DNA of 64,000 nt from Escherichia coli (GTDB lineage Bacteria > Pseudomonadota > Gammaproteobacteria > Enterobacterales > Enterobacteriaceae). The notes below the pieces were generated by a model. It was not told the origin of the DNA and did not search any database. It was given only the letters and a program-made list of their open reading frames with translations. This document shows positions 3,861 through 17,817 of the stretch, in pieces; the first letter of the stretch is position 1; each line of letters opens with the position of its first letter. A program made the position numbers and the translations under genes. The stretch is from NCBI RefSeq assembly GCF_041886205.1, contig NZ_CP169029.1; one strand, 5' to 3'.

Positions 3861-4775
3861 ATGAGTCGTTCACAAAATTTACGCCACAATGTGATTAACC
3901 AGGTCATTGATGATATGGCGCGGGGTCATATCCCTTCCCCACTTCCATCGCAAAGTGCGCTGGCGGAAATGTACAACATCAGCCGCACCACAGTGCGTCA
4001 TATTCTCAGCCATTTACGCGAATGCGGCGTCTTGACGCAGGTTGGAAACGACTATGTTATTGCGCGTAAACCTGACCACGATGACGGTTTCGCCTGTACT
4101 ACCGCTTCAATGAGTGAACAAAACAAAGTGTTTGAGCAGGCTTTTTTCACGATGATAAACCAGCGTCAGTTACGCCCTGGGGAAACTTTTTCTGAACTGC
4201 AACTGGCGCGGGCCGCGGGTGTCAGCCCGGTGGTTGTAAGAGAATATCTTTTAAAATTCGGCCGTTATAATCTAATTCAAAGCGAAAAGCGCGGCCAGTG
4301 GAGCATGAAGCAATTCGATCAATCCTACGCCGAGCAGCTGTTTGAGCTACGCGAAATGCTCGAAACACATTCACTTCAGCACTTTCTCAACCTGCCTGAT
4401 CATGATCCCCGCTGGCTGCAGGCGAAAACCATGCTCGAACGTCATCGGCTACTGCGTGACAACATCGGCAATAGCTTTCGCATGTTCTCGCAACTTGACA
4501 GAGATTTTCACTCCTTACTGCTTTCGGCTGCCGACAATATCTTTTTTGATCAATCGCTTGAGATCATCTCAGTCATCTTTCATTTTCACTATCAATGGGA
4601 CGAAAGCGATCTTAAACAGCGCAATATCATTGCCGTCGATGAGCATATGACCATTCTCAGCGCTCTGATTTGCCGCAGTGACCTTGATGCCACCCTTGCG
4701 CTCCGTAACCATTTGAATTCAGCTAAACAATCAATGATTCGATCCATTAATGAGAACACGCGTTATGCTCATTAA
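3861..4775 (+). CDS. lgoR: GntR-family transcriptional regulator of L-galactonate utilisation
   Basis: 304 aa; N-terminal winged-HTH (ISRTTVRHILSHLRECGVL) plus C-terminal FCD-like domain; SD GGAGG before ATG. Confidence 0.82.
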   Translation: MSRSQNLRHNVINQVIDDMARGHIPSPLPSQSALAEMYNISRTTVRHILSHLRECGVLTQVGNDYVIARKPDHDDGFACTTASMSEQNKVFEQAFFTMINQRQLRPGETFSELQLARAAGVSPVVVREYLLKFGRYNLIQSEKRGQWSMKQFDQSYAEQLFELREMLETHSLQHFLNLPDHDPRWLQAKTMLERHRLLRDNIGNSFRMFSQLDRDFHSLLLSAADNIFFDQSLEIISVIFHFHYQWDESDLKQRNIIAVDEHMTILSALICRSDLDATLALRNHLNSAKQSMIRSINENTRYAH

Positions 4776-8971: not shown

Positions 8972-9127
8972 CGTCCCTAAAATAACCACTCAGTTATTTA
9001 CCTTACTTTACGCGCGCGTAACTCTGGCAACATCACTGCAGGATAGCGGTCAATTTACCTCCTCAAACGCAACGCAAACCTAGAACGGCTTCGGCCAACG
9101 ATTAATCAATACATGCCAGGTTTTACT

Positions 9128-11278
9128 ATGGATACTAAAAAGATATTCAAGCACATACCCTGGGTGATTCTCGGAATCATCGGTGCATTCTGCCTCGCGG
9201 TAGTTGCATTACGTCGGGGGGAGCACGTCAGCGCCCTGTGGATCGTGGTCGCCTCTGTGTCGGTGTATCTGGTGGCGTATCGCTACTACAGTCTGTACAT
9301 CGCCCAGAAGGTGATGAAACTCGACCCCACGCGCGCGACGCCTGCGGTTATTAACAACGACGGTCTGAACTACGTTCCGACCAACCGTTACGTGTTGTTT
9401 GGTCACCACTTCGCCGCTATCGCCGGTGCTGGTCCGCTGGTCGGTCCGGTTCTCGCCGCACAGATGGGCTACCTGCCTGGCACGCTGTGGCTGCTGGCGG
9501 GGGTAGTACTGGCCGGTGCGGTTCAGGACTTTATGGTGCTGTTTATCTCCTCTCGCCGTAACGGCGCATCTCTCGGTGAGATGATCAAAGAAGAGATGGG
9601 GCCAGTTCCGGGGACTATCGCGCTGTTTGGCTGTTTCTTAATCATGATCATCATCCTCGCCGTTCTGGCGCTGATTGTGGTTAAAGCCCTGGCCGAAAGT
9701 CCGTGGGGTGTCTTCACCGTTTGCTCAACCGTACCGATTGCGCTGTTTATGGGTATCTACATGCGCTTTATCCGTCCGGGGCGTGTGGGTGAAGTCTCTG
9801 TCATTGGTATCGTGCTGCTGGTTGCCTCTATCTACTTCGGTGGCGTGATTGCTCACGATCCGTACTGGGGTCCGGCACTGACCTTTAAAGACACCACCAT
9901 TACCTTCGCGCTGATTGGCTATGCGTTTGTTTCCGCACTGCTGCCGGTGTGGCTGATCCTCGCACCGCGCGACTATCTGGCAACCTTCCTGAAAATCGGC
10001 GTTATCGTCGGCCTGGCGCTGGGTATCGTGGTGCTGAACCCGGAACTGAAAATGCCTGCGATGACCCAGTACATTGACGGTACTGGCCCGCTATGGAAAG
10101 GCGCTCTGTTCCCGTTCCTGTTCATCACCATCGCCTGTGGTGCGGTATCTGGCTTCCACGCGCTGATCTCTTCCGGTACGACGCCGAAACTGCTGGCTAA
10201 TGAAACCGACGCGCGTTTCATTGGCTACGGCGCAATGCTGATGGAGTCCTTCGTGGCGATTATGGCGCTGGTTGCTGCATCCATCATCGAACCGGGTCTT
10301 TACTTCGCGATGAATACCCCGCCTGCTGGCCTTGGCATCACCATGCCTAACCTGCATGAAATGGGTGGCGAGAACGCGCCGATCATCATGGCGCAGCTGA
10401 AAGACGTTACCGCACACGCGGCAGCGACAGTCAGCTCCTGGGGCTTCGTGATTTCGCCAGAGCAGATCCTGCAAACCGCGAAAGACATTGGTGAGCCTTC
10501 TGTCCTGAACCGTGCAGGTGGTGCGCCGACGCTGGCGGTAGGTATCGCTCACGTGTTCCACAAAGTGCTGCCGATGGCTGACATGGGCTTCTGGTATCAC
10601 TTCGGTATTCTGTTCGAAGCCCTGTTCATCCTGACCGCGCTGGATGCGGGTACTCGTTCTGGCCGCTTTATGCTGCAAGACCTGCTGGGTAACTTCATCC
10701 CGTTCCTGAAAAAAACCGACTCTCTGGTTGCCGGTATCATCGGTACTGCGGGCTGTGTGGGTCTGTGGGGCTACCTGCTGTATCAGGGCGTGGTCGATCC
10801 GCTGGGCGGCGTTAAGAGCCTGTGGCCGCTGTTCGGTATTTCCAACCAGATGCTGGCAGCCGTAGCGCTGGTACTGGGCACCGTTGTGCTGATTAAGATG
10901 AAGCGCACCCAATACATCTGGGTAACTGTTGTTCCGGCTGTATGGCTGCTTATCTGCACCACCTGGGCGCTGGGTCTGAAACTGTTCAGCACCAACCCGC
11001 AGATGGAAGGCTTCTTCTACATGGCAAGCCAGTACAAAGAGAAGATTGCTAACGGTACTGACCTGACGGCGCAGCAGATTGCCAACATGAACCACATCGT
11101 TGTGAACAACTACACCAACGCGGGCCTGAGTATTCTGTTCCTGATTGTGGTGTACAGCATCATCTTCTACGGTTTCAAAACCTGGCTTGCGGTGCGTAAC
11201 AGCGACAAACGTACTGACAAAGAAACACCGTACGTTCCAATCCCGGAAGGCGGCGTGAAGATCTCTTCGCACCACTAA
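9128..11278 (+). CDS. btsT: Pyruvate/H+ symporter, CstA-family transporter
   Basis: 716 aa from ATG at 9128 (MDTKKIFKHIPWVILG); many TM helices; CstA family architecture; synteny with yjiX-yjiA. Confidence 0.88.
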   Translation: MDTKKIFKHIPWVILGIIGAFCLAVVALRRGEHVSALWIVVASVSVYLVAYRYYSLYIAQKVMKLDPTRATPAVINNDGLNYVPTNRYVLFGHHFAAIAGAGPLVGPVLAAQMGYLPGTLWLLAGVVLAGAVQDFMVLFISSRRNGASLGEMIKEEMGPVPGTIALFGCFLIMIIILAVLALIVVKALAESPWGVFTVCSTVPIALFMGIYMRFIRPGRVGEVSVIGIVLLVASIYFGGVIAHDPYWGPALTFKDTTITFALIGYAFVSALLPVWLILAPRDYLATFLKIGVIVGLALGIVVLNPELKMPAMTQYIDGTGPLWKGALFPFLFITIACGAVSGFHALISSGTTPKLLANETDARFIGYGAMLMESFVAIMALVAASIIEPGLYFAMNTPPAGLGITMPNLHEMGGENAPIIMAQLKDVTAHAAATVSSWGFVISPEQILQTAKDIGEPSVLNRAGGAPTLAVGIAHVFHKVLPMADMGFWYHFGILFEALFILTALDAGTRSGRFMLQDLLGNFIPFLKKTDSLVAGIIGTAGCVGLWGYLLYQGVVDPLGGVKSLWPLFGISNQMLAAVALVLGTVVLIKMKRTQYIWVTVVPAVWLLICTTWALGLKLFSTNPQMEGFFYMASQYKEKIANGTDLTAQQIANMNHIVVNNYTNAGLSILFLIVVYSIIFYGFKTWLAVRNSDKRTDKETPYVPIPEGGVKISSHH

Positions 11279-11327: not shown

Positions 11328-11531
11328 ATGTTTGGTAACTTAGGACAGGCAAAAAAATATCTCGGCCAGGCGGCGAAGATGTTGATTGGCATTCCAGACT
11401 ACGACAACTACGTCGAGCATATGAAGACCAACCATCCCGACAAACCGTACATGAGCTATGAAGAATTCTTCCGCGAACGCCAGAACGCGCGCTACGGCGG
11501 CGATGGTAAAGGCGGTATGCGCTGTTGTTAA
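11328..11531 (+). CDS. yjiX: Small DUF466-family protein
   Basis: 67-aa ORF between btsT and yjiA; conserved position. Confidence 0.75.
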
Positions 11532-11541
11532 TGGAGAGAGC

Positions 11542-12498
11542 ATGAACCCGATTGCAGTTACCCTACTCACCGGTTTTTTAGGCGCGGGAAAAACCACCCT
11601 GCTGCGCCATATTCTTAATGAACAACACGGCTACAAGATTGCCGTGATTGAAAACGAATTCGGCGAAATCTCCGTTGATGATCAATTGATTGGTGATCGC
11701 GCAACGCAGATCAAAACGCTGACCAACGGCTGCATCTGCTGTTCGCGCTCCAACGAGCTGGAGGACGCGCTACTCGACCTGCTGGATAATCTCGACAAGG
11801 GCAATATTCAGTTCGATCGTCTGGTCATTGAATGCACCGGCATGGCCGATCCCGGCCCGATTATTCAGACCTTTTTCTCCCATGAGATTTTATGCCAGCG
11901 CTACCTGCTGGACGGCGTGATTGCGCTGGTGGATGCGGTACATGCCGATGAGCAGATGAACCAGTTCACCATCGCCCAGTCACAGGTTGGCTACGCCGAC
12001 CGTATTCTGCTGACTAAAACCGACGTCGCAGGCGAAGCAGAAAAACTGCGTGAACGCCTGGCGCGCATCAACGCCCGTGCACCGGTCTACACCGTTACCC
12101 ACGGCGACATCGACCTGGGCCTGCTGTTCAACACCAACGGTTTTATGCTGGAAGAAAACGTCGTCAGCACCAAACCGCGTTTCCACTTTATCGCGGATAA
12201 ACAAAACGATATTTCGTCGATTGTGGTGGAACTGGATTACCCGGTAGATATCAGCGAAGTTTCCCGGGTGATGGAAAACCTGCTGCTGGAATCGGCGGAT
12301 AAACTGCTGCGTTACAAAGGGATGCTGTGGATTGACGGCGAACCTAACCGCCTGCTGTTCCAGGGCGTCCAGCGCCTCTACAGCGCCGACTGGGACAGGC
12401 CATGGGGCGATGAAAAACCGCATAGCACGATGGTGTTTATCGGGATTCAGTTGCCGGAGGATGAGATTCGGGCAGCGTTTGCGGGGTTGAGGAAGTAA
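11542..12498 (+). CDS. yjiA: CobW/G3E-family metal-binding GTPase
   Basis: 318 aa from ATG 11542; P-loop GFLGAGKTTL, CxCC metal motif (NGCICCS); stop of yjiX 10 bp upstream. Confidence 0.85.
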   Translation: MNPIAVTLLTGFLGAGKTTLLRHILNEQHGYKIAVIENEFGEISVDDQLIGDRATQIKTLTNGCICCSRSNELEDALLDLLDNLDKGNIQFDRLVIECTGMADPGPIIQTFFSHEILCQRYLLDGVIALVDAVHADEQMNQFTIAQSQVGYADRILLTKTDVAGEAEKLRERLARINARAPVYTVTHGDIDLGLLFNTNGFMLEENVVSTKPRFHFIADKQNDISSIVVELDYPVDISEVSRVMENLLLESADKLLRYKGMLWIDGEPNRLLFQGVQRLYSADWDRPWGDEKPHSTMVFIGIQLPEDEIRAAFAGLRK

Positions 12499-12832
12499 TT
12501 ACCTTAACCTACTCATACGAAGCGGACGAGGATAAAATCCTATCATTTTCCGTTCGCTTCATTATTTTATTTTCTTTCCAATGCCCATTCAAATTAAAAA
12601 TATAACTCTGCCATAACTTCCTGAACACAGATGTAATTACATTGCCACCTCTCATACTTTTAAAAACGATCCATATGACAAGTCGTCCTATTGGGGCGTG
12701 ATAGATGTATTAATTTCCAAATATGCAAACATTCTGATACAGTCCCAAAAAGAAAATAATTACCAACCCAGATAATCAGCAAATAAATTAATGACAGTTG
12801 AATTATAATCAACACGAATACAAGAGATTAAC

Positions 12833-14683
12833 ATGGCAACAATAATCCCAACAATCAGTAGCTGCAACGATAAAATTACTGCCGGAGAGAAAAGGCTGGC
12901 AAGAATTCTGGAAAGAGGACTAGGCGAAGAGTGCTGCTGTTGGTATGACATTCCCACGGGTGATAAGCATCTTCACCCAGATTTTATGATACTTTCGCCA
13001 GAAAAAGGCATTATTTTTCTCGAGGTAAAAGATTGGTTTATTACAAAAATAAAAAAAGCCAACAAGTCTAATGTGTGGTATGAGACACAAAATGGCATTC
13101 AATCTTTAAAGAATCCGATAGAACAAGTTAGGCGATATGCTTTCGAAGCTGTAAACCAGTTAAAAAAAGACCCCCTATTGCGCCAACAGGATGATCGTTA
13201 CAATGGCAATCTTCTTTTCCCCTATGGATATGGCGTCTACTTTAGTAATATTACACGAGAAGCATTAAATAATAAATTTACTCAAGAAGAGCTGCTCGGG
13301 ATCTTCCCATCAGATCTCATCATCTGCAAAGACGAACTAAATGAATTCATGTCAAAAGAGGATGTTTCATCTAAAATACATTCGTTAATTAAATATGACT
13401 TCAAATGTCATGCTACACAAGAACAGTTGAACAGGATTAGATGGCACTTATACCCCGATGTCAGAATAGAAAGGGAAAAGAGAAGTAAAAACCGTGATGA
13501 ATTGAGTGTCGATGCACCAACCATCATTTCTATCCTGGATACTCAACAGGAACAACTTGCCAGGAGTATGAGAGATGGCCACCGAATCATTCATGGTGTT
13601 GCAGGTTCAGGGAAGACATTGATCCTCTATCATCGCTGTCAGGAATTAGCGAAAAAAAATGACAGCGAAAAGCCAATACTTGTCATTTGCTACAATATTA
13701 CTTTAGCCAAAAAACTTCGGTCGATGTTCATCAATCATCCCTTTGCAGAGAAAATAAAGGTTAAAAATTTTCATGCATGGTGTTTCCAACAAATTAAAGA
13801 AAACAAGATCACCATTCCAGAAGGGGATAATATTTTTGAAAATATGGAGCAAGCGTTGACTGATGGTTTCAACACAGGAAAAATAAAACCAGAACAATAC
13901 AGCGCTGTATTAATTGATGAAGGACATGATTTTAAGCCCGAATGGTTAAAAATCCTTGCAAAAATGACTGACTCTCAGGACGAGAATTTGCTATTCCTTT
14001 ATGATGATGCTCAGTCAATTTACCAAAAAAAGAAAGCATTAGACTTTACACTGTCCAGCGTAGATATTAAAGCGACAGGGCGCACAACTATTCTTAATAT
14101 AAATTATAGAAACACACAGCAAATCCTACACTTTGCCAGTTGCATTGCATTTAATTATCTTAATAGCCATATCGATAGTTCTTTAACCTATCATAAACCT
14201 GCTGCGGGAGGAATGAATGGCGATTATCCCAACCTTGAACATTTCGACACACAGGACGAAGAAATAGCAAGAGCAGTCAAATGGATTACAGAGCAAAATG
14301 AACAAGGGATTCCGTGGTCTGAAATTGCTATACTAAGTCCATCAACTCATACCCTTTCTAACTCTCTAAGTTCTGTACTTGAATCGAAAAACATCCCCTT
14401 TAATCTTATTGTAAGCTCTGCAGATAAAAAATCCTGGACGCCAGAACAAGAGCGTGTTTCTGTGATGCCATTACCCAGCAGCAAAGGGCTTGAGTTTCAC
14501 TCAGTTGTCATTATTGACGCAGCGAGAACACGGGATAATAGCGATGATTTGAGTGAGGATATAAAGAGACTCTATGTAGGTTTTACCCGAGCACGTTGCA
14601 ATCTCTTGGTAACCTTGCACGGTGAAGGTGCGTTAAATGAGCATCTACTAAAAACCTATGAGCAAAGCCCACAATATATGTAA
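12833..14683 (+). CDS. NERD-domain nuclease fused to SF1 (UvrD-like) helicase; Nhi-like candidate anti-phage protein
   Basis: 616 aa; N-terminal NERD-like region with PD...(E)VK core (HPDFMIL ... IIFLEVKDW); Walker A GVAGSGKT, Walker B VLIDEGHDF, SF1 motif V/VI-like LPSSKGLEFHSVVII and LYVGFTRARCNLLV; AT-rich; occupies the slot that holds mrr-hsdRMS in K-12. Confidence 0.75.
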   Translation: MATIIPTISSCNDKITAGEKRLARILERGLGEECCCWYDIPTGDKHLHPDFMILSPEKGIIFLEVKDWFITKIKKANKSNVWYETQNGIQSLKNPIEQVRRYAFEAVNQLKKDPLLRQQDDRYNGNLLFPYGYGVYFSNITREALNNKFTQEELLGIFPSDLIICKDELNEFMSKEDVSSKIHSLIKYDFKCHATQEQLNRIRWHLYPDVRIEREKRSKNRDELSVDAPTIISILDTQQEQLARSMRDGHRIIHGVAGSGKTLILYHRCQELAKKNDSEKPILVICYNITLAKKLRSMFINHPFAEKIKVKNFHAWCFQQIKENKITIPEGDNIFENMEQALTDGFNTGKIKPEQYSAVLIDEGHDFKPEWLKILAKMTDSQDENLLFLYDDAQSIYQKKKALDFTLSSVDIKATGRTTILNINYRNTQQILHFASCIAFNYLNSHIDSSLTYHKPAAGGMNGDYPNLEHFDTQDEEIARAVKWITEQNEQGIPWSEIAILSPSTHTLSNSLSSVLESKNIPFNLIVSSADKKSWTPEQERVSVMPLPSSKGLEFHSVVIIDAARTRDNSDDLSEDIKRLYVGFTRARCNLLVTLHGEGALNEHLLKTYEQSPQYM

Positions 14684-14827
14684 AAATGATAAATGATCTC
14701 CATAACGCCCGGTAACGCGGTACCGGGCGAAATGAATGCATATCTAAGATATTAGTCACGCCTGATAGCCGCTACCAAAAACACCATCATCTCCCTCGCA
14801 TCTTTGCGGTGATAAAATCGTACCATT

Positions 14828-15121
14828 TTGCTGTTAAATTCCAGCGCGTTAGCCGCTGGAATTAACAAGATCAGACTTCCGGCAACGAAGAGCCAGTTAT
14901 TACAAAAATTACTGGCAAAAGAGATAAAAAGCATTGTTGACAACACATCGAAATATCCTGACTGGAGTAAACACGATGATATTAAAGCGAAACTGAAAGT
15001 TGAACTTATTCTGCTTCTACACAAGCATAAGTTCCCGTCAGTAGCGAATGATGATGTTTATATGGGTGTGCTGGCACAGGCAGAGAGTTTTAAAGAACAT
15101 CATATGAGTCCTATAAATTAA
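14828..15121 (+). pseudogene. Orphan ORF fragment without ATG start, possible relic of a displaced restriction cassette
   Basis: 97-codon frame beginning at TTG with no convincing RBS; reads like the C-terminal tail of a larger protein; located between the NERD-helicase gene and symE. Confidence 0.3.
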
Positions 15122-15299
15122 TCATGAAGGCTGGATACACTTTGTTATCCGGCCATTGTGAATTAACGTTAATTTTTCTTCCAAATCTTTCCAGTAACGC
15201 TTTTATTATTTTCTATTTTTAGCTGGACTTTCCCTGTATTTACTGATGATATGTCCAGGTATTTAGCGCGGTGCGGATGTGCGCCAACACACCCGCACC

Positions 15300-15376
15300 A
15301 CTCATCACAATCACTATTTTCAAGGAATAGCAGTTATGACTGACACGCATTTTATTGCACAACCGTTCGAAGCAGA
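15300..15376 (-). ncRNA. symR: Expected position of SymR antisense sRNA (type I antitoxin) overlapping the symE RBS and start
   Basis: Placement inferred from the known symE/symR arrangement; boundaries not determinable from sequence alone. Confidence 0.35.
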
Positions 15377-15677
15377 AGTCTCCCCGGCAAATAACCGTCA
15401 ATTAACCGTGAGTTATGCGAGCCGCTACCCGGATTACAGCCGTATTCCCGCCATCACCCTGAAAGGTCAGTGGCTGGAAGCCGCCGGTTTTGCCACCGGC
15501 ACGGCGGTAGATGTCAAAGTAATGGAAGGCTGTATTGTCCTCACCGCCCAACAACCCGCCGCCGAAGAGAGCGAACTGATGCAGTCGCTGCGCCAGGTGT
15601 GCAAACTGTCGGCGCGTAAACAAAAGCAGGTGCAGGATTTTATTGGGGTGATTGCCGGTAAACAGAAAGTCGCCTGA
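15336..15677 (+). CDS. symE: SOS-induced toxin SymE (AbrB/MazE-like fold endoribonuclease)
   Basis: 113 aa from ATG 15336 with AAGGAA SD; sequence [25 protein letters not shown] ... matches remembered SymE (YjiW). Confidence 0.8.
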
Positions 15678-15723: not shown

Positions 15724-17817
15724 TTATACCAACGCGCTCTCCATCTGTTTTTCAAATGCCTGACGAATTAATCCCATAATGTAAGGAAGTTGTGCGAGGT
15801 CGCTGAAACCAATTTCCACATCACCATTACCCCAGCGCCCAATATTTGTCACATCTTTGGCAATACCTTTCGGATCGACCAGTTCATGAAACTGCATATT
15901 AAGCGACAATCGCAGTCGGCTTTTTTGCGGCACAACATCAACAAAATTCGTTTCAGCTTTAAACGCAATATACAGCTTTAAAACTTCCTGCGTGATCCCT
16001 GCGTCCAGGCGCATAACTTCATCGCGAAGATGATCGAATAACACCCGGCTATGCGAACCATCAGCAAGAAAAGGATAATCACTCAGGCTGTAACTGGTTT
16101 TGTTTTCTGGCTGCCCCCGATAAACAGCTAAAACCTCTTCAGAAAGAGAAGGCGCTTGCCAGACCTGAACCGCGAGATCGGCCAGACGATCGGCTCGGGC
16201 GTGAATGGCGGCTTCATCCCATTTTTCGCACTGTCCAAGACCGATATTCAAATAAAGCGGGCTATGTTTAAAGCCATCTTCAATATCGCGTTTTTCCGCG
16301 AAAGGTCTGTCACTGTAGCGGGAGTTATAGCGCGTTAAAGTGAGATTCCCCAACGTATGTAACAGTTCTTTATGCACACGCTGCCAGTCGCTTCCCAGCT
16401 CTTCACGCCATTTAGCCGACAGATTTTCGTTCTGCGGCATAATGTGCTCAATCGTAAACTCTTCCACGCGCTCTCTGCGTTTATCGTTTTCCAGTCGTCG
16501 TAACCAGTAGCTGCGGCTGCGGAAGTTATAGAGATCGCGCACTTTTAATTCCCGTTTAAATTCATCATCGTTGGGGAAACGACGATATGAAGGCAGGTTC
16601 ATAAAATGTACCTGAATACTTTCCAGATATTTTTCTTTATTAATGACCTTATAAAAAGTGGCAAACGTCTTGTTAAGAGAATTCGTCGGAATCGCACATA
16701 CTGCACGGCGGAAAACATAAGATTCAATTAAACGAATTATGCTCAGGAAATCTTCGTGAGACAAATCGTCATTTTTATAGTCATGATAAAGCGCCAGTAA
16801 GAAAGGATACGCCACATCAACCTTTAACTCGCGCAAATCCTGAAAAGCCGTAGCAAGCGATTTGTCACTTTCTTTTCCCAATGCCATTGCACAGTAATAC
16901 TCCGCGTAGATATGAATATCTTCAACCAGCCGATCTACGCCTTTTTCAGCAACACTCTGGCTGCGGGCATGGAGTTTAAATGCCTCATAGACTTCATCTG
17001 TCCGAGGGATCTCCCCCGTTTTTACCGTCAGATAATGACGCATAAAACTGTCAAAATATTCGCTGTAACCTTGCTGACCAAAGGCGACTTCCATTGGACG
17101 CCAGTGATCTTCATACAACCGGGTTTGATGCTCTGGTTCGAGACCCATCAGAATAAAATTGCGCACCAGATCGGCCTGACTTAACGCCTTACCGGTGGAG
17201 TTCATACTTTCAAAAATCAGTTGCGGATTATCCTGACCACGATTAAGCGCCACATCGACAATTAATAACTTTGCTAACCCTCGACATAAGGGAATCAAGT
17301 CATCCCCGAGTTTGGCAATTTGCTCATCAAAGAAAGTAAAGTTTTCCATTATTCGATGGGAATAGTTTTCTGGCATTGGTCTTTGTTTTATTAACGCCAG
17401 CAAACTGTCTTTATCAGTCTCGGTCAGCAGTAATTTAAAACCTTTCTCGCCGGACTCATAAGGATTGAGCAAATAATAATTACGCAATTTCATTGCCGAA
17501 AAGCCATCAAAAACTTCGTCTTCGCCAAGATGGCGCGATAAAGCCTCAATCAGCAACATTGCGGTCGTCAGCCGCTGCTGACCATCAATGACCAGCAACG
17601 GAGAAATACCAGAAACCTGATACAACCCCTGCTCAATATAAACAACCGAACCGATAAAATGCGCTGATATATCGTCACGCTTTCCGGCACGAATGATGTC
17701 GTCCCAAAGTTGCCGACATTGTTGCCCGGTCCATGAATAGGTGCGTTGATAAATGGGAATAACAAACTGCTGCGAACGTTTTAAAAAATCGAGTAGGCGG
17801 GCTTCTGTAGCTTTCAT
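15724..17817 (-). CDS. Type IV modification-dependent restriction endonuclease, GmrSD family (DUF262 + DUF1524)
   Basis: 697 aa; N-terminal DUF262/ParB-like NTPase motifs (IPIYQRTYSW, IDGQQRLTT); C-terminal DUF1524 His-Me finger motifs (EHIMPQ, HTLGNLTLT); sits where mcrBC lies in K-12. Confidence 0.75.
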   Translation of the reverse strand: MKATEARLLDFLKRSQQFVIPIYQRTYSWTGQQCRQLWDDIIRAGKRDDISAHFIGSVVYIEQGLYQVSGISPLLVIDGQQRLTTAMLLIEALSRHLGEDEVFDGFSAMKLRNYYLLNPYESGEKGFKLLLTETDKDSLLALIKQRPMPENYSHRIMENFTFFDEQIAKLGDDLIPLCRGLAKLLIVDVALNRGQDNPQLIFESMNSTGKALSQADLVRNFILMGLEPEHQTRLYEDHWRPMEVAFGQQGYSEYFDSFMRHYLTVKTGEIPRTDEVYEAFKLHARSQSVAEKGVDRLVEDIHIYAEYYCAMALGKESDKSLATAFQDLRELKVDVAYPFLLALYHDYKNDDLSHEDFLSIIRLIESYVFRRAVCAIPTNSLNKTFATFYKVINKEKYLESIQVHFMNLPSYRRFPNDDEFKRELKVRDLYNFRSRSYWLRRLENDKRRERVEEFTIEHIMPQNENLSAKWREELGSDWQRVHKELLHTLGNLTLTRYNSRYSDRPFAEKRDIEDGFKHSPLYLNIGLGQCEKWDEAAIHARADRLADLAVQVWQAPSLSEEVLAVYRGQPENKTSYSLSDYPFLADGSHSRVLFDHLRDEVMRLDAGITQEVLKLYIAFKAETNFVDVVPQKSRLRLSLNMQFHELVDPKGIAKDVTNIGRWGNGDVEIGFSDLAQLPYIMGLIRQAFEKQMESALV

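Follow-up and report, generated by a model that had tools for sequence, protein, structure and literature searches.

The 97-codon open reading frame between the NERD-helicase gene and symE is very probably a non-functional remnant of hsdR, which keeps 86 of 1087 codons, has a deletion history of two steps and descends from the hsdR family found in the gene order hsdM-hsdS-hsdR (M-S-R). The analysed window, a stretch of 64,000 nucleotides, represents the 'immigration control region' of Escherichia coli. The genes are arranged there in the order btsT (9113–11278), yjiX, yjiA (11458–12498), the NERD/UvrD-type helicase gene, the scar with the remnant, symE, a GmrSD-type nuclease gene on the minus strand (15724–17817), yjiS and yjiR. 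The closest complete genome is that of strain 6EVA, with 99.9% identity over positions 14600–15340. The features of the scar and its flanks are collected in Table 1.

Table 1. Features in and around the scar between yjiA and the end of symE (positions in the window)
Feature	Positions	Strand	Basis or remark
NERD + UvrD-type helicase gene, 616 aa	12833–14683	+	Pfam NERD, UvrD-helicase, UvrD_C; slot beside yjiA
GC-rich hairpin, 9-bp stem CGCCCGGTA/TACCGGGCG	14706–14729		Between the convergent stops of the NERD-helicase gene and the Fic-like relic
Fic-like gene 3' relic, last 35 codons (PAANALEFNSKMVRFYHRKDAREMMVFLVAAIRRD) and stop	14752–14859	−	blastn, tblastn, base-by-base reading of the junction
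hsdR piece A, codons ~903–920 of 1087 (INKIRLPATKSQLLQKLL)	14860–14915	+	blastn 94% over 67 bp; tblastn 19/24 identical
Site of the 297-bp in-frame deletion, 15-bp motif ACTGGCAAAAGAGAT	14911–14925	+	Three-way alignment with Nissle and 1919D3 hsdR; overlapping HSPs
hsdR piece B, codons ~1020–1087 and native stop	14916–15121	+	blastn 93%; tblastn 62/69, E 2e-38; T1RH-like_C
Native 3' flank of the hsdR family, hairpin ~15129–15155	15122–15204	+	Continuous with the Nissle hsdR-symE spacer; absent from K-12
'Framework' DNA upstream of symE, common to K-12	15205–15335	+	blastn 93.6% over 15205–15673 vs K-12
LexA-box-like CTG-N10-CAG	15243–15258	+	Pattern match
SymR antisense antitoxin RNA	15265–15341	−	Rfam RF01809, 88.4 bits (gathering 61), E 8.7e-17, full length
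symE toxin gene, 113 aa	15336–15677	+	Pfam SymE_toxin E 1.4e-21; RefSeq annotation in near-identical 6EVA

The 97-codon frame and hsdR

The frame occupies positions 14828–15121 of the plus strand, starts with TTG at 14828 and ends with a stop codon at 15119–15121; reading is open from 14813. There was no in-frame ATG in the region of 14828, no Shine-Dalgarno sequence was seen by eye before the TTG, and a consensus scan of the plus strand found no sigma-70-like site upstream of the frame. These results agree with the preliminary description, which had reported a 97-codon frame devoid of an ATG or a convincing ribosome-binding site and had quoted a peptide that lies inside this frame. The span of 14700–15121 given there does contain the frame, while its left end also takes in a non-frame hairpin and the minus-strand tail of a dead gene. 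A length of 97 codons is unremarkable, and the ORF list of the window holds many spurious ORFs similar in size. The frame was counted as real because its homology is far beyond chance, not because of its length.

One class of HsdR ends in the domain T1RH-like_C (Pfam PF11867). The translated frame matched this profile with 57.1 bits (cut-off 26.8; E 2.6e-15), and the match covered only its last 63 positions (266–328 of 329). The tblastn comparison of the frame with full-length HsdR of strain Nissle showed identity at 62 of 69 residues (1019–1087; E 2e-38) and at 19 of 24 (residues 901–924). The proposal that the frame reads like the C-terminal tail of a larger protein was thus borne out by both searches.

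At the DNA level, blastn gave 93% identity to Nissle over 490 bp, which run from inside the frame through the 3' end of hsdR and the hsdR-symE spacer into symE. Two collinear pieces of hsdR lie in the same reading frame: positions 14859–14925 correspond to Nissle codons ~902–924 (94% identity; Nissle locus 11652–11718) and positions 14911–15121 to codons ~1018–1087 and the stop (93%). A megablast search of 5426 complete E. coli genomes matched 14911–15340 to the 3' end of full-length genes annotated as 'type I restriction endonuclease subunit R' and the spacer before symE, and the 3' end in piece B was present at a coverage of at least 80% in 1072 of these genomes. The order hsdM-hsdS-hsdR-symE with an hsdR of 1087 codons is seen in Nissle, ATCC 25922 and 1919D3. 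The PF11867 match, together with the colinearity of the DNA with the 3' end and the flank of an intact gene family at the same locus, marks the fragment as an HsdR-derived pseudogene. As such it is already known through public annotation: in every carrier inspected, RefSeq (PGAP) calls a pseudogene at the equivalent of 14912–15121, with the label 'type I restriction enzyme endonuclease domain-containing protein, missing N-terminus'.

As compared with the HsdR of Nissle 1917 and ATCC 25922 (WP_000058884.1, 1087 aa), the last 69 residues are 90% identical in amino acid sequence and residues 901–924 are 79% identical. The DNA identity of 93% extends across the stop codon, the 3' hairpin and the spacer as far as symE, and the strand and the position relative to symE match. 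The scar differs from the Nissle system in what it lacks. Full-length Nissle HsdR contains HSDR_N at residues 5–234 and the ResIII/SWI2_SNF2 motor with domain 3 at residues 293–729, whereas Pfam found neither the PD-(D/E)xK nuclease domain HSDR_N nor the SF2 ATPase/translocase motor in the fragment, and most of the C-terminal domain is gone as well. The scar has no start codon, showed no promoter-like site and carries an internal deletion of 297 bp, and no hsdM or hsdS is present between yjiA and symE. The attributes of a functional full-length HsdR, namely HSDR_N, the motor and adjacent hsdM and hsdS genes, are therefore missing from the fragment.

Only type IA, IB and ID systems, and no type IC system, were listed for this island in a 2025 review (PMC12707154). 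Because the island holds only these three types, type IA ends in EcoEI_R_C and this HsdR ends in T1RH-like_C, we infer by elimination, and not by comparison with the prototypes, that the parent was of type ID (StySBLI/EcoR9I/KpnAI); in this assignment type IB is assumed, from the name of the domain, to end in EcoEI_R_C too. The sole solved relative of the parent HsdR is that of EcoR124I (type IC; PDB 2W00), with E ~4e-24 over the motor region, and the 97-aa fragment itself had no meaningful match among the solved structures.

The Fic-like relic and the two junctions

A second dead gene, missed by the preliminary description, abuts the hsdR remnant on its left: it is Fic-like, lies on the opposite strand and is reduced to its 3' tail. 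Positions 14752–14847 matched the 3' end of a gene of strain M7424 annotated by RefSeq as 'Fic family protein' and located in the same island, with 82.5% identity over 97 bp (blastn), and the minus-strand translation (PAANALEFNSKMVRFYHRKDAREMMVFLV...stop) matched the C-terminus of the M7424 protein (tblastn E 8e-17). The relic covers only 35 residues that follow the Fic motif region. The M7424 protein (WP_000208602), the closest intact relative, scored 22.1 bits against the 24-bit cut-off of Pfam Fic and had no NCBIfam match; its motif FFFDGNKRTSR, with no His, is degenerate as compared with the Fic motif HxFx(D/E)GNGRxxR. A protein-database search for an intact donor with the peptide of the relic returned only five short spurious ORFs over the same relic in Escherichia. 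An extension of the minus-strand tblastn match into 14860–14901 was dismissed as chance, as the DNA there is 94% identical to hsdR. The M7424 island, with its Fic-like gene, GmrSD and type I system, was also rejected as a direct ancestor, since identity between its HsdR and the parent (Nissle) family is no more than 24% and symE is absent.

The composition of the frame reflects both relics. Its first 11 codons (MLLNSSALAAG) are antisense to the Fic-like relic, the next 18 correspond to HsdR residues 903–920 and the last 68 to residues 1020–1087. When read base by base, the junction between the Fic-like relic and hsdR at 14859/14860 has at most two shared bases.

The internal junction lies at a 15-bp motif which is present twice in intact hsdR, 297 bp apart, as ACTGGAAAAAGCGAT and ACTGGCAAAAGAGAT, with 13 of 15 bases alike. 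The three-way alignment with Nissle and 1919D3 showed that both the upstream flank (TT before ACTGG) and the downstream variant bases are present in the window. As both are retained, the crossover was placed within ACTGG, the 5 bp shared at 14911–14915. The deletion removed 297 bp, or 99 codons (921–1019), in frame.

Alleles, relatives and neighbouring genes

The NERD cassette was found in exactly 100 of the 5426 complete E. coli genomes (about 2%), including E2348/69 and SMS-3-5, and the scar query and its left part each gave 100 genomes at a coverage of at least 80%. Judging by the equal counts, and not by accession lists, the three sets appear to be the same genomes, so that the scar appears to travel with the NERD haplotype. 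Nine alleles were aligned (the window, 6EVA, ApSLC23, 2A, Santai, SMS-3-5, E2348/69, PAR and DCE7), and the 297-bp deletion was thus inspected in nine of the 100 E. coli alleles. They are ~92–100% identical across the scar, have the same length and share identical junctions; in Santai, where the junctions are also as in the others, one additional T in piece A breaks the frame. From the identical junctions in the nine alleles, we conclude that the scar arose once and later diverged or recombined.

Outside this set, Escherichia sp. E4742, of a cryptic Escherichia lineage, shares the NERD gene, hairpin, Fic-like relic and Fic-like|hsdR junction with the E. coli haplotype. Its hsdR is undeleted past the 15-bp motif for ~50 more bases, to codon ~940, where a 9-bp microhomology (ACCCGCCGC) connects it with codon ~73 of symE (window 15554). 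As the first junction is the same and the secondary deletion is another one, the primary junction is older, and two secondary deletions took place in different lineages. The deletion in E4742 (~4090–4260 in the reverse complement; window-equivalent 14844–15600) took away SymR along with the 5' two-thirds of symE, and both parts of the toxin-antitoxin module were thus lost at once.

Independent 3' remnants of hsdR beside symE were found in MS20657 and TCM3e1 as an hsdM'-'hsdR fusion, in which the N-terminus of hsdM is followed by the last ~220 codons of hsdR. They resemble the scar in gene family, in the position of the 3' end beside symE and in the RefSeq label. However, their breakpoint joins hsdM to hsdR instead of the Fic-like gene to hsdR, they have no 297-bp deletion, and their yjiA neighbour is brnTA with an Mrr-type nuclease, not the NERD helicase.

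A search for relatives of the NERD helicase with one genome per species returned three loci, and the sequence of one of them, E1V33 (Escherichia sp.), ends before the scar. In Huaxiibacter chinensis and Lelliottia sp., a NERD helicase with 63% identity directly follows yjiA and neither relic, Fic or hsdR, lies downstream of it, which suggests that the slot next to yjiA, held by this gene, is independent of the type I slot. In the spacer between yjiA and the helicase gene (12499–12832, 334 bp), the similarity to all other island types ends at most 3 bp past the yjiA stop. The window is only ~89–90% identical to other NERD carriers over this spacer, as against ~97% over the helicase region overall, and no relic was recognised within it.

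The hairpin at 14706–14729, a putative terminator, is kept in the nine alleles, with one loop base different in seven. The stretch 14690–14750 folds with −19.1 kcal/mol on the plus strand (z −3.1) and −23.1 kcal/mol on the minus strand (z −4.0). The hairpin at the 3' end of hsdR has a fold of −19.1 kcal/mol (z −4.25). The LexA-box-like pattern precedes symE, which is under LexA control. The eight central bases of the 3' stem-loop of SymR (window 15277–15290, GCGCCAAC) are inverted to GTTGGCGC in Nissle only (~12369–12382), and the window, K-12 and five other strains have the same loop orientation; the difference in Nissle is a hairpin-loop inversion inside the antitoxin RNA.

Both the nuclease of GmrSD type, with 697 aa, and the NERD helicase are intact in the window. 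In 6EVA, Santai and SMS-3-5, the annotation gives the GmrSD gene as split or partial. An internal stop interrupts the helicase gene of 6EVA and a frameshift that of DCE7, and in one E4742 assembly two genes are called for the helicase; the defence genes of the NERD haplotype seem to decay often, or some of the assemblies seem to be erroneous. Several carriers (2A, E2348/69, PAR and DCE7) have no GmrSD gene downstream of symE. In the same four, yjiR is missing or cut to a short 'GntR family' pseudogene, and no mdtM is annotated between the rpn gene and yjiN. As NERD carriers thus differ in their content downstream of symE, variation in the right half of the island is independent of that in the left.

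Origin and meaning of the remnant

The preliminary description had taken the frame for a possible relic of HsdS or HsdR at the place where the 3' end of the hsd operon abuts symE in K-12-type genomes, marking the crossover of a cassette replacement. Its HsdR alternative holds, as the C-terminal domain and the match to Nissle HsdR indicate, but not for the K-12 family, and the position holds only for genomes with the M-S-R order such as Nissle, ATCC 25922 and 1919D3. In K-12, the order is hsdR-hsdM-hsdS-symE, so hsdS and not hsdR adjoins symE. A K-12-type (EcoKI, type IA) hsd or Mrr relic left by a homologous exchange of a K-12-like cassette for the NERD cassette would agree with the shared yjiA-symE island and strand, broadly the position of the K-12 hsd operon, and with the cassette-like exchange noted for this island (PMC12707154). 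Nevertheless, we give this explanation next to no chance. The blastp comparison of the 97 aa with K-12 HsdR, HsdM, HsdS and Mrr found no similarity (best E 1.5), the K-12 HsdR ends in EcoEI_R_C and not in T1RH-like_C, and colinearity with the K-12 DNA upstream of symE exists only from 15205 onward, 84 bp past the relic stop, and does not include the relic itself. These three results refute a K-12-family origin of the fragment. The bases shared at the two junctions, at most two and five, are also not the homology stretches of a crossover; the junctions are those of illegitimate deletions, and the DNA on the left is the Fic-like tail, not the NERD cassette.

An insertion of the NERD cassette could itself have truncated hsdR, the breakpoint then being the right end of the incoming DNA and the Fic-like piece a co-arrival. 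The seemingly perfect linkage of cassette and scar (100 genomes in each search) would fit this, as would the fact that the NERD gene and the relic of the Fic-like gene converge on one hairpin between them, in the manner of native neighbours which could have come together. We consider it unlikely, since the NERD helicase of Huaxiibacter chinensis and Lelliottia sp. looks long-standing in its slot after yjiA, with no relics and apart from the type I slot, and a Fic-like gene is already resident in the island of another E. coli strain (M7424), although no feature tells arrival with NERD from deletion in place. The remnant might also be retained as useful, either as a small protein that consists of the helical domain at the C-terminus of HsdR and might, for instance, hinder the assembly of type I enzymes, or as a homology arm easing the re-acquisition of a type I system. 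The frame was left open by the 297-bp deletion, piece B is protein-identical to functional HsdR in several alleles (L005 and L006 (2A) among them), and ~970 other E. coli genomes with this hsdR 3' end (the 1072 less the 100 of the NERD haplotype) are homologous to piece B with the spacer over ~300 bp. The protein identity fits a recent origin or gene conversion and is also compatible with constraint. Retention for use is still extremely unlikely, given the missing ATG, promoter-like site and visible Shine-Dalgarno sequence, the frameshift in Santai, the complete deletion of piece B in E4742 and the antisense origin of the first 11 codons, and homology for exchange is already provided by the framework genes symE, yjiS and yjiR. 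The window allele moreover has a non-synonymous excess: as compared with functional alleles over 69 codons, it has ~7.5 non-synonymous and 0.5–2.5 synonymous changes, a pN/pS of 0.75–3.8 from small counts (~10 sites), and two full-length functional hsdR genes gave 0.03. Strain S37, misaligned and with a C-terminus of another length, was left out of this comparison. The substitutions in the remnant look neutral.

We therefore return to the reading in which the relic records how a type I system was lost through deletion and what remained of it eroded further. In a first step, an illegitimate deletion would have fused the last 35 codons of the opposite-strand Fic-like gene to hsdR at codon ~903, with the loss of the rest of the Fic-like gene, any intervening DNA, hsdM, hsdS and 83% of hsdR. 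The shared junctions are observed; the mechanism and a single deletion we infer, the latter because no intact predecessor, with the NERD helicase, an intact Fic-like gene, hsdM-S-R and symE, was found among the genomes searched. The closest Fic-like gene, only 82.5% identical and located beside another type I family (the one with an HsdR 24% identical to that of Nissle), is a weak point of this history. In the second step, which the alignment displays directly for the E. coli haplotype, the deletion between the imperfect 15-bp direct repeats took the 99 codons, and it was an accident that the frame stayed open. On this reading, what is left has no function as a gene: it drifts neutrally, fills the space from the NERD-helicase gene to the symE/SymR module and keeps the old 3' hairpin of hsdR.

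It is very unlikely that the hsdR tail and its 3' flank (14916–15204) are preserved as a homology arm or 'landing pad'. If they were, the pad and symE would let strains without a type I system regain one from the ~18% of E. coli with this hsdR family. This would explain why repeated independent deletions leave the same 3' end of hsdR by symE and why some scar alleles are protein-identical to functional HsdR through gene conversion.

The scar is an ordinary pseudogene that does not point to a novel type of gene, RNA or mechanism, and its importance goes little beyond bookkeeping. Its nested junctions are a small clean case of the stepwise erosion of a pseudogene via short-homology deletions and may serve as lineage markers of the haplotype. 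For E. coli, the remnant means that the NERD haplotype, carried by E2348/69, SMS-3-5 and ~2% of complete genomes, once had a type I system of the M-S-R order and lost it by deletion.
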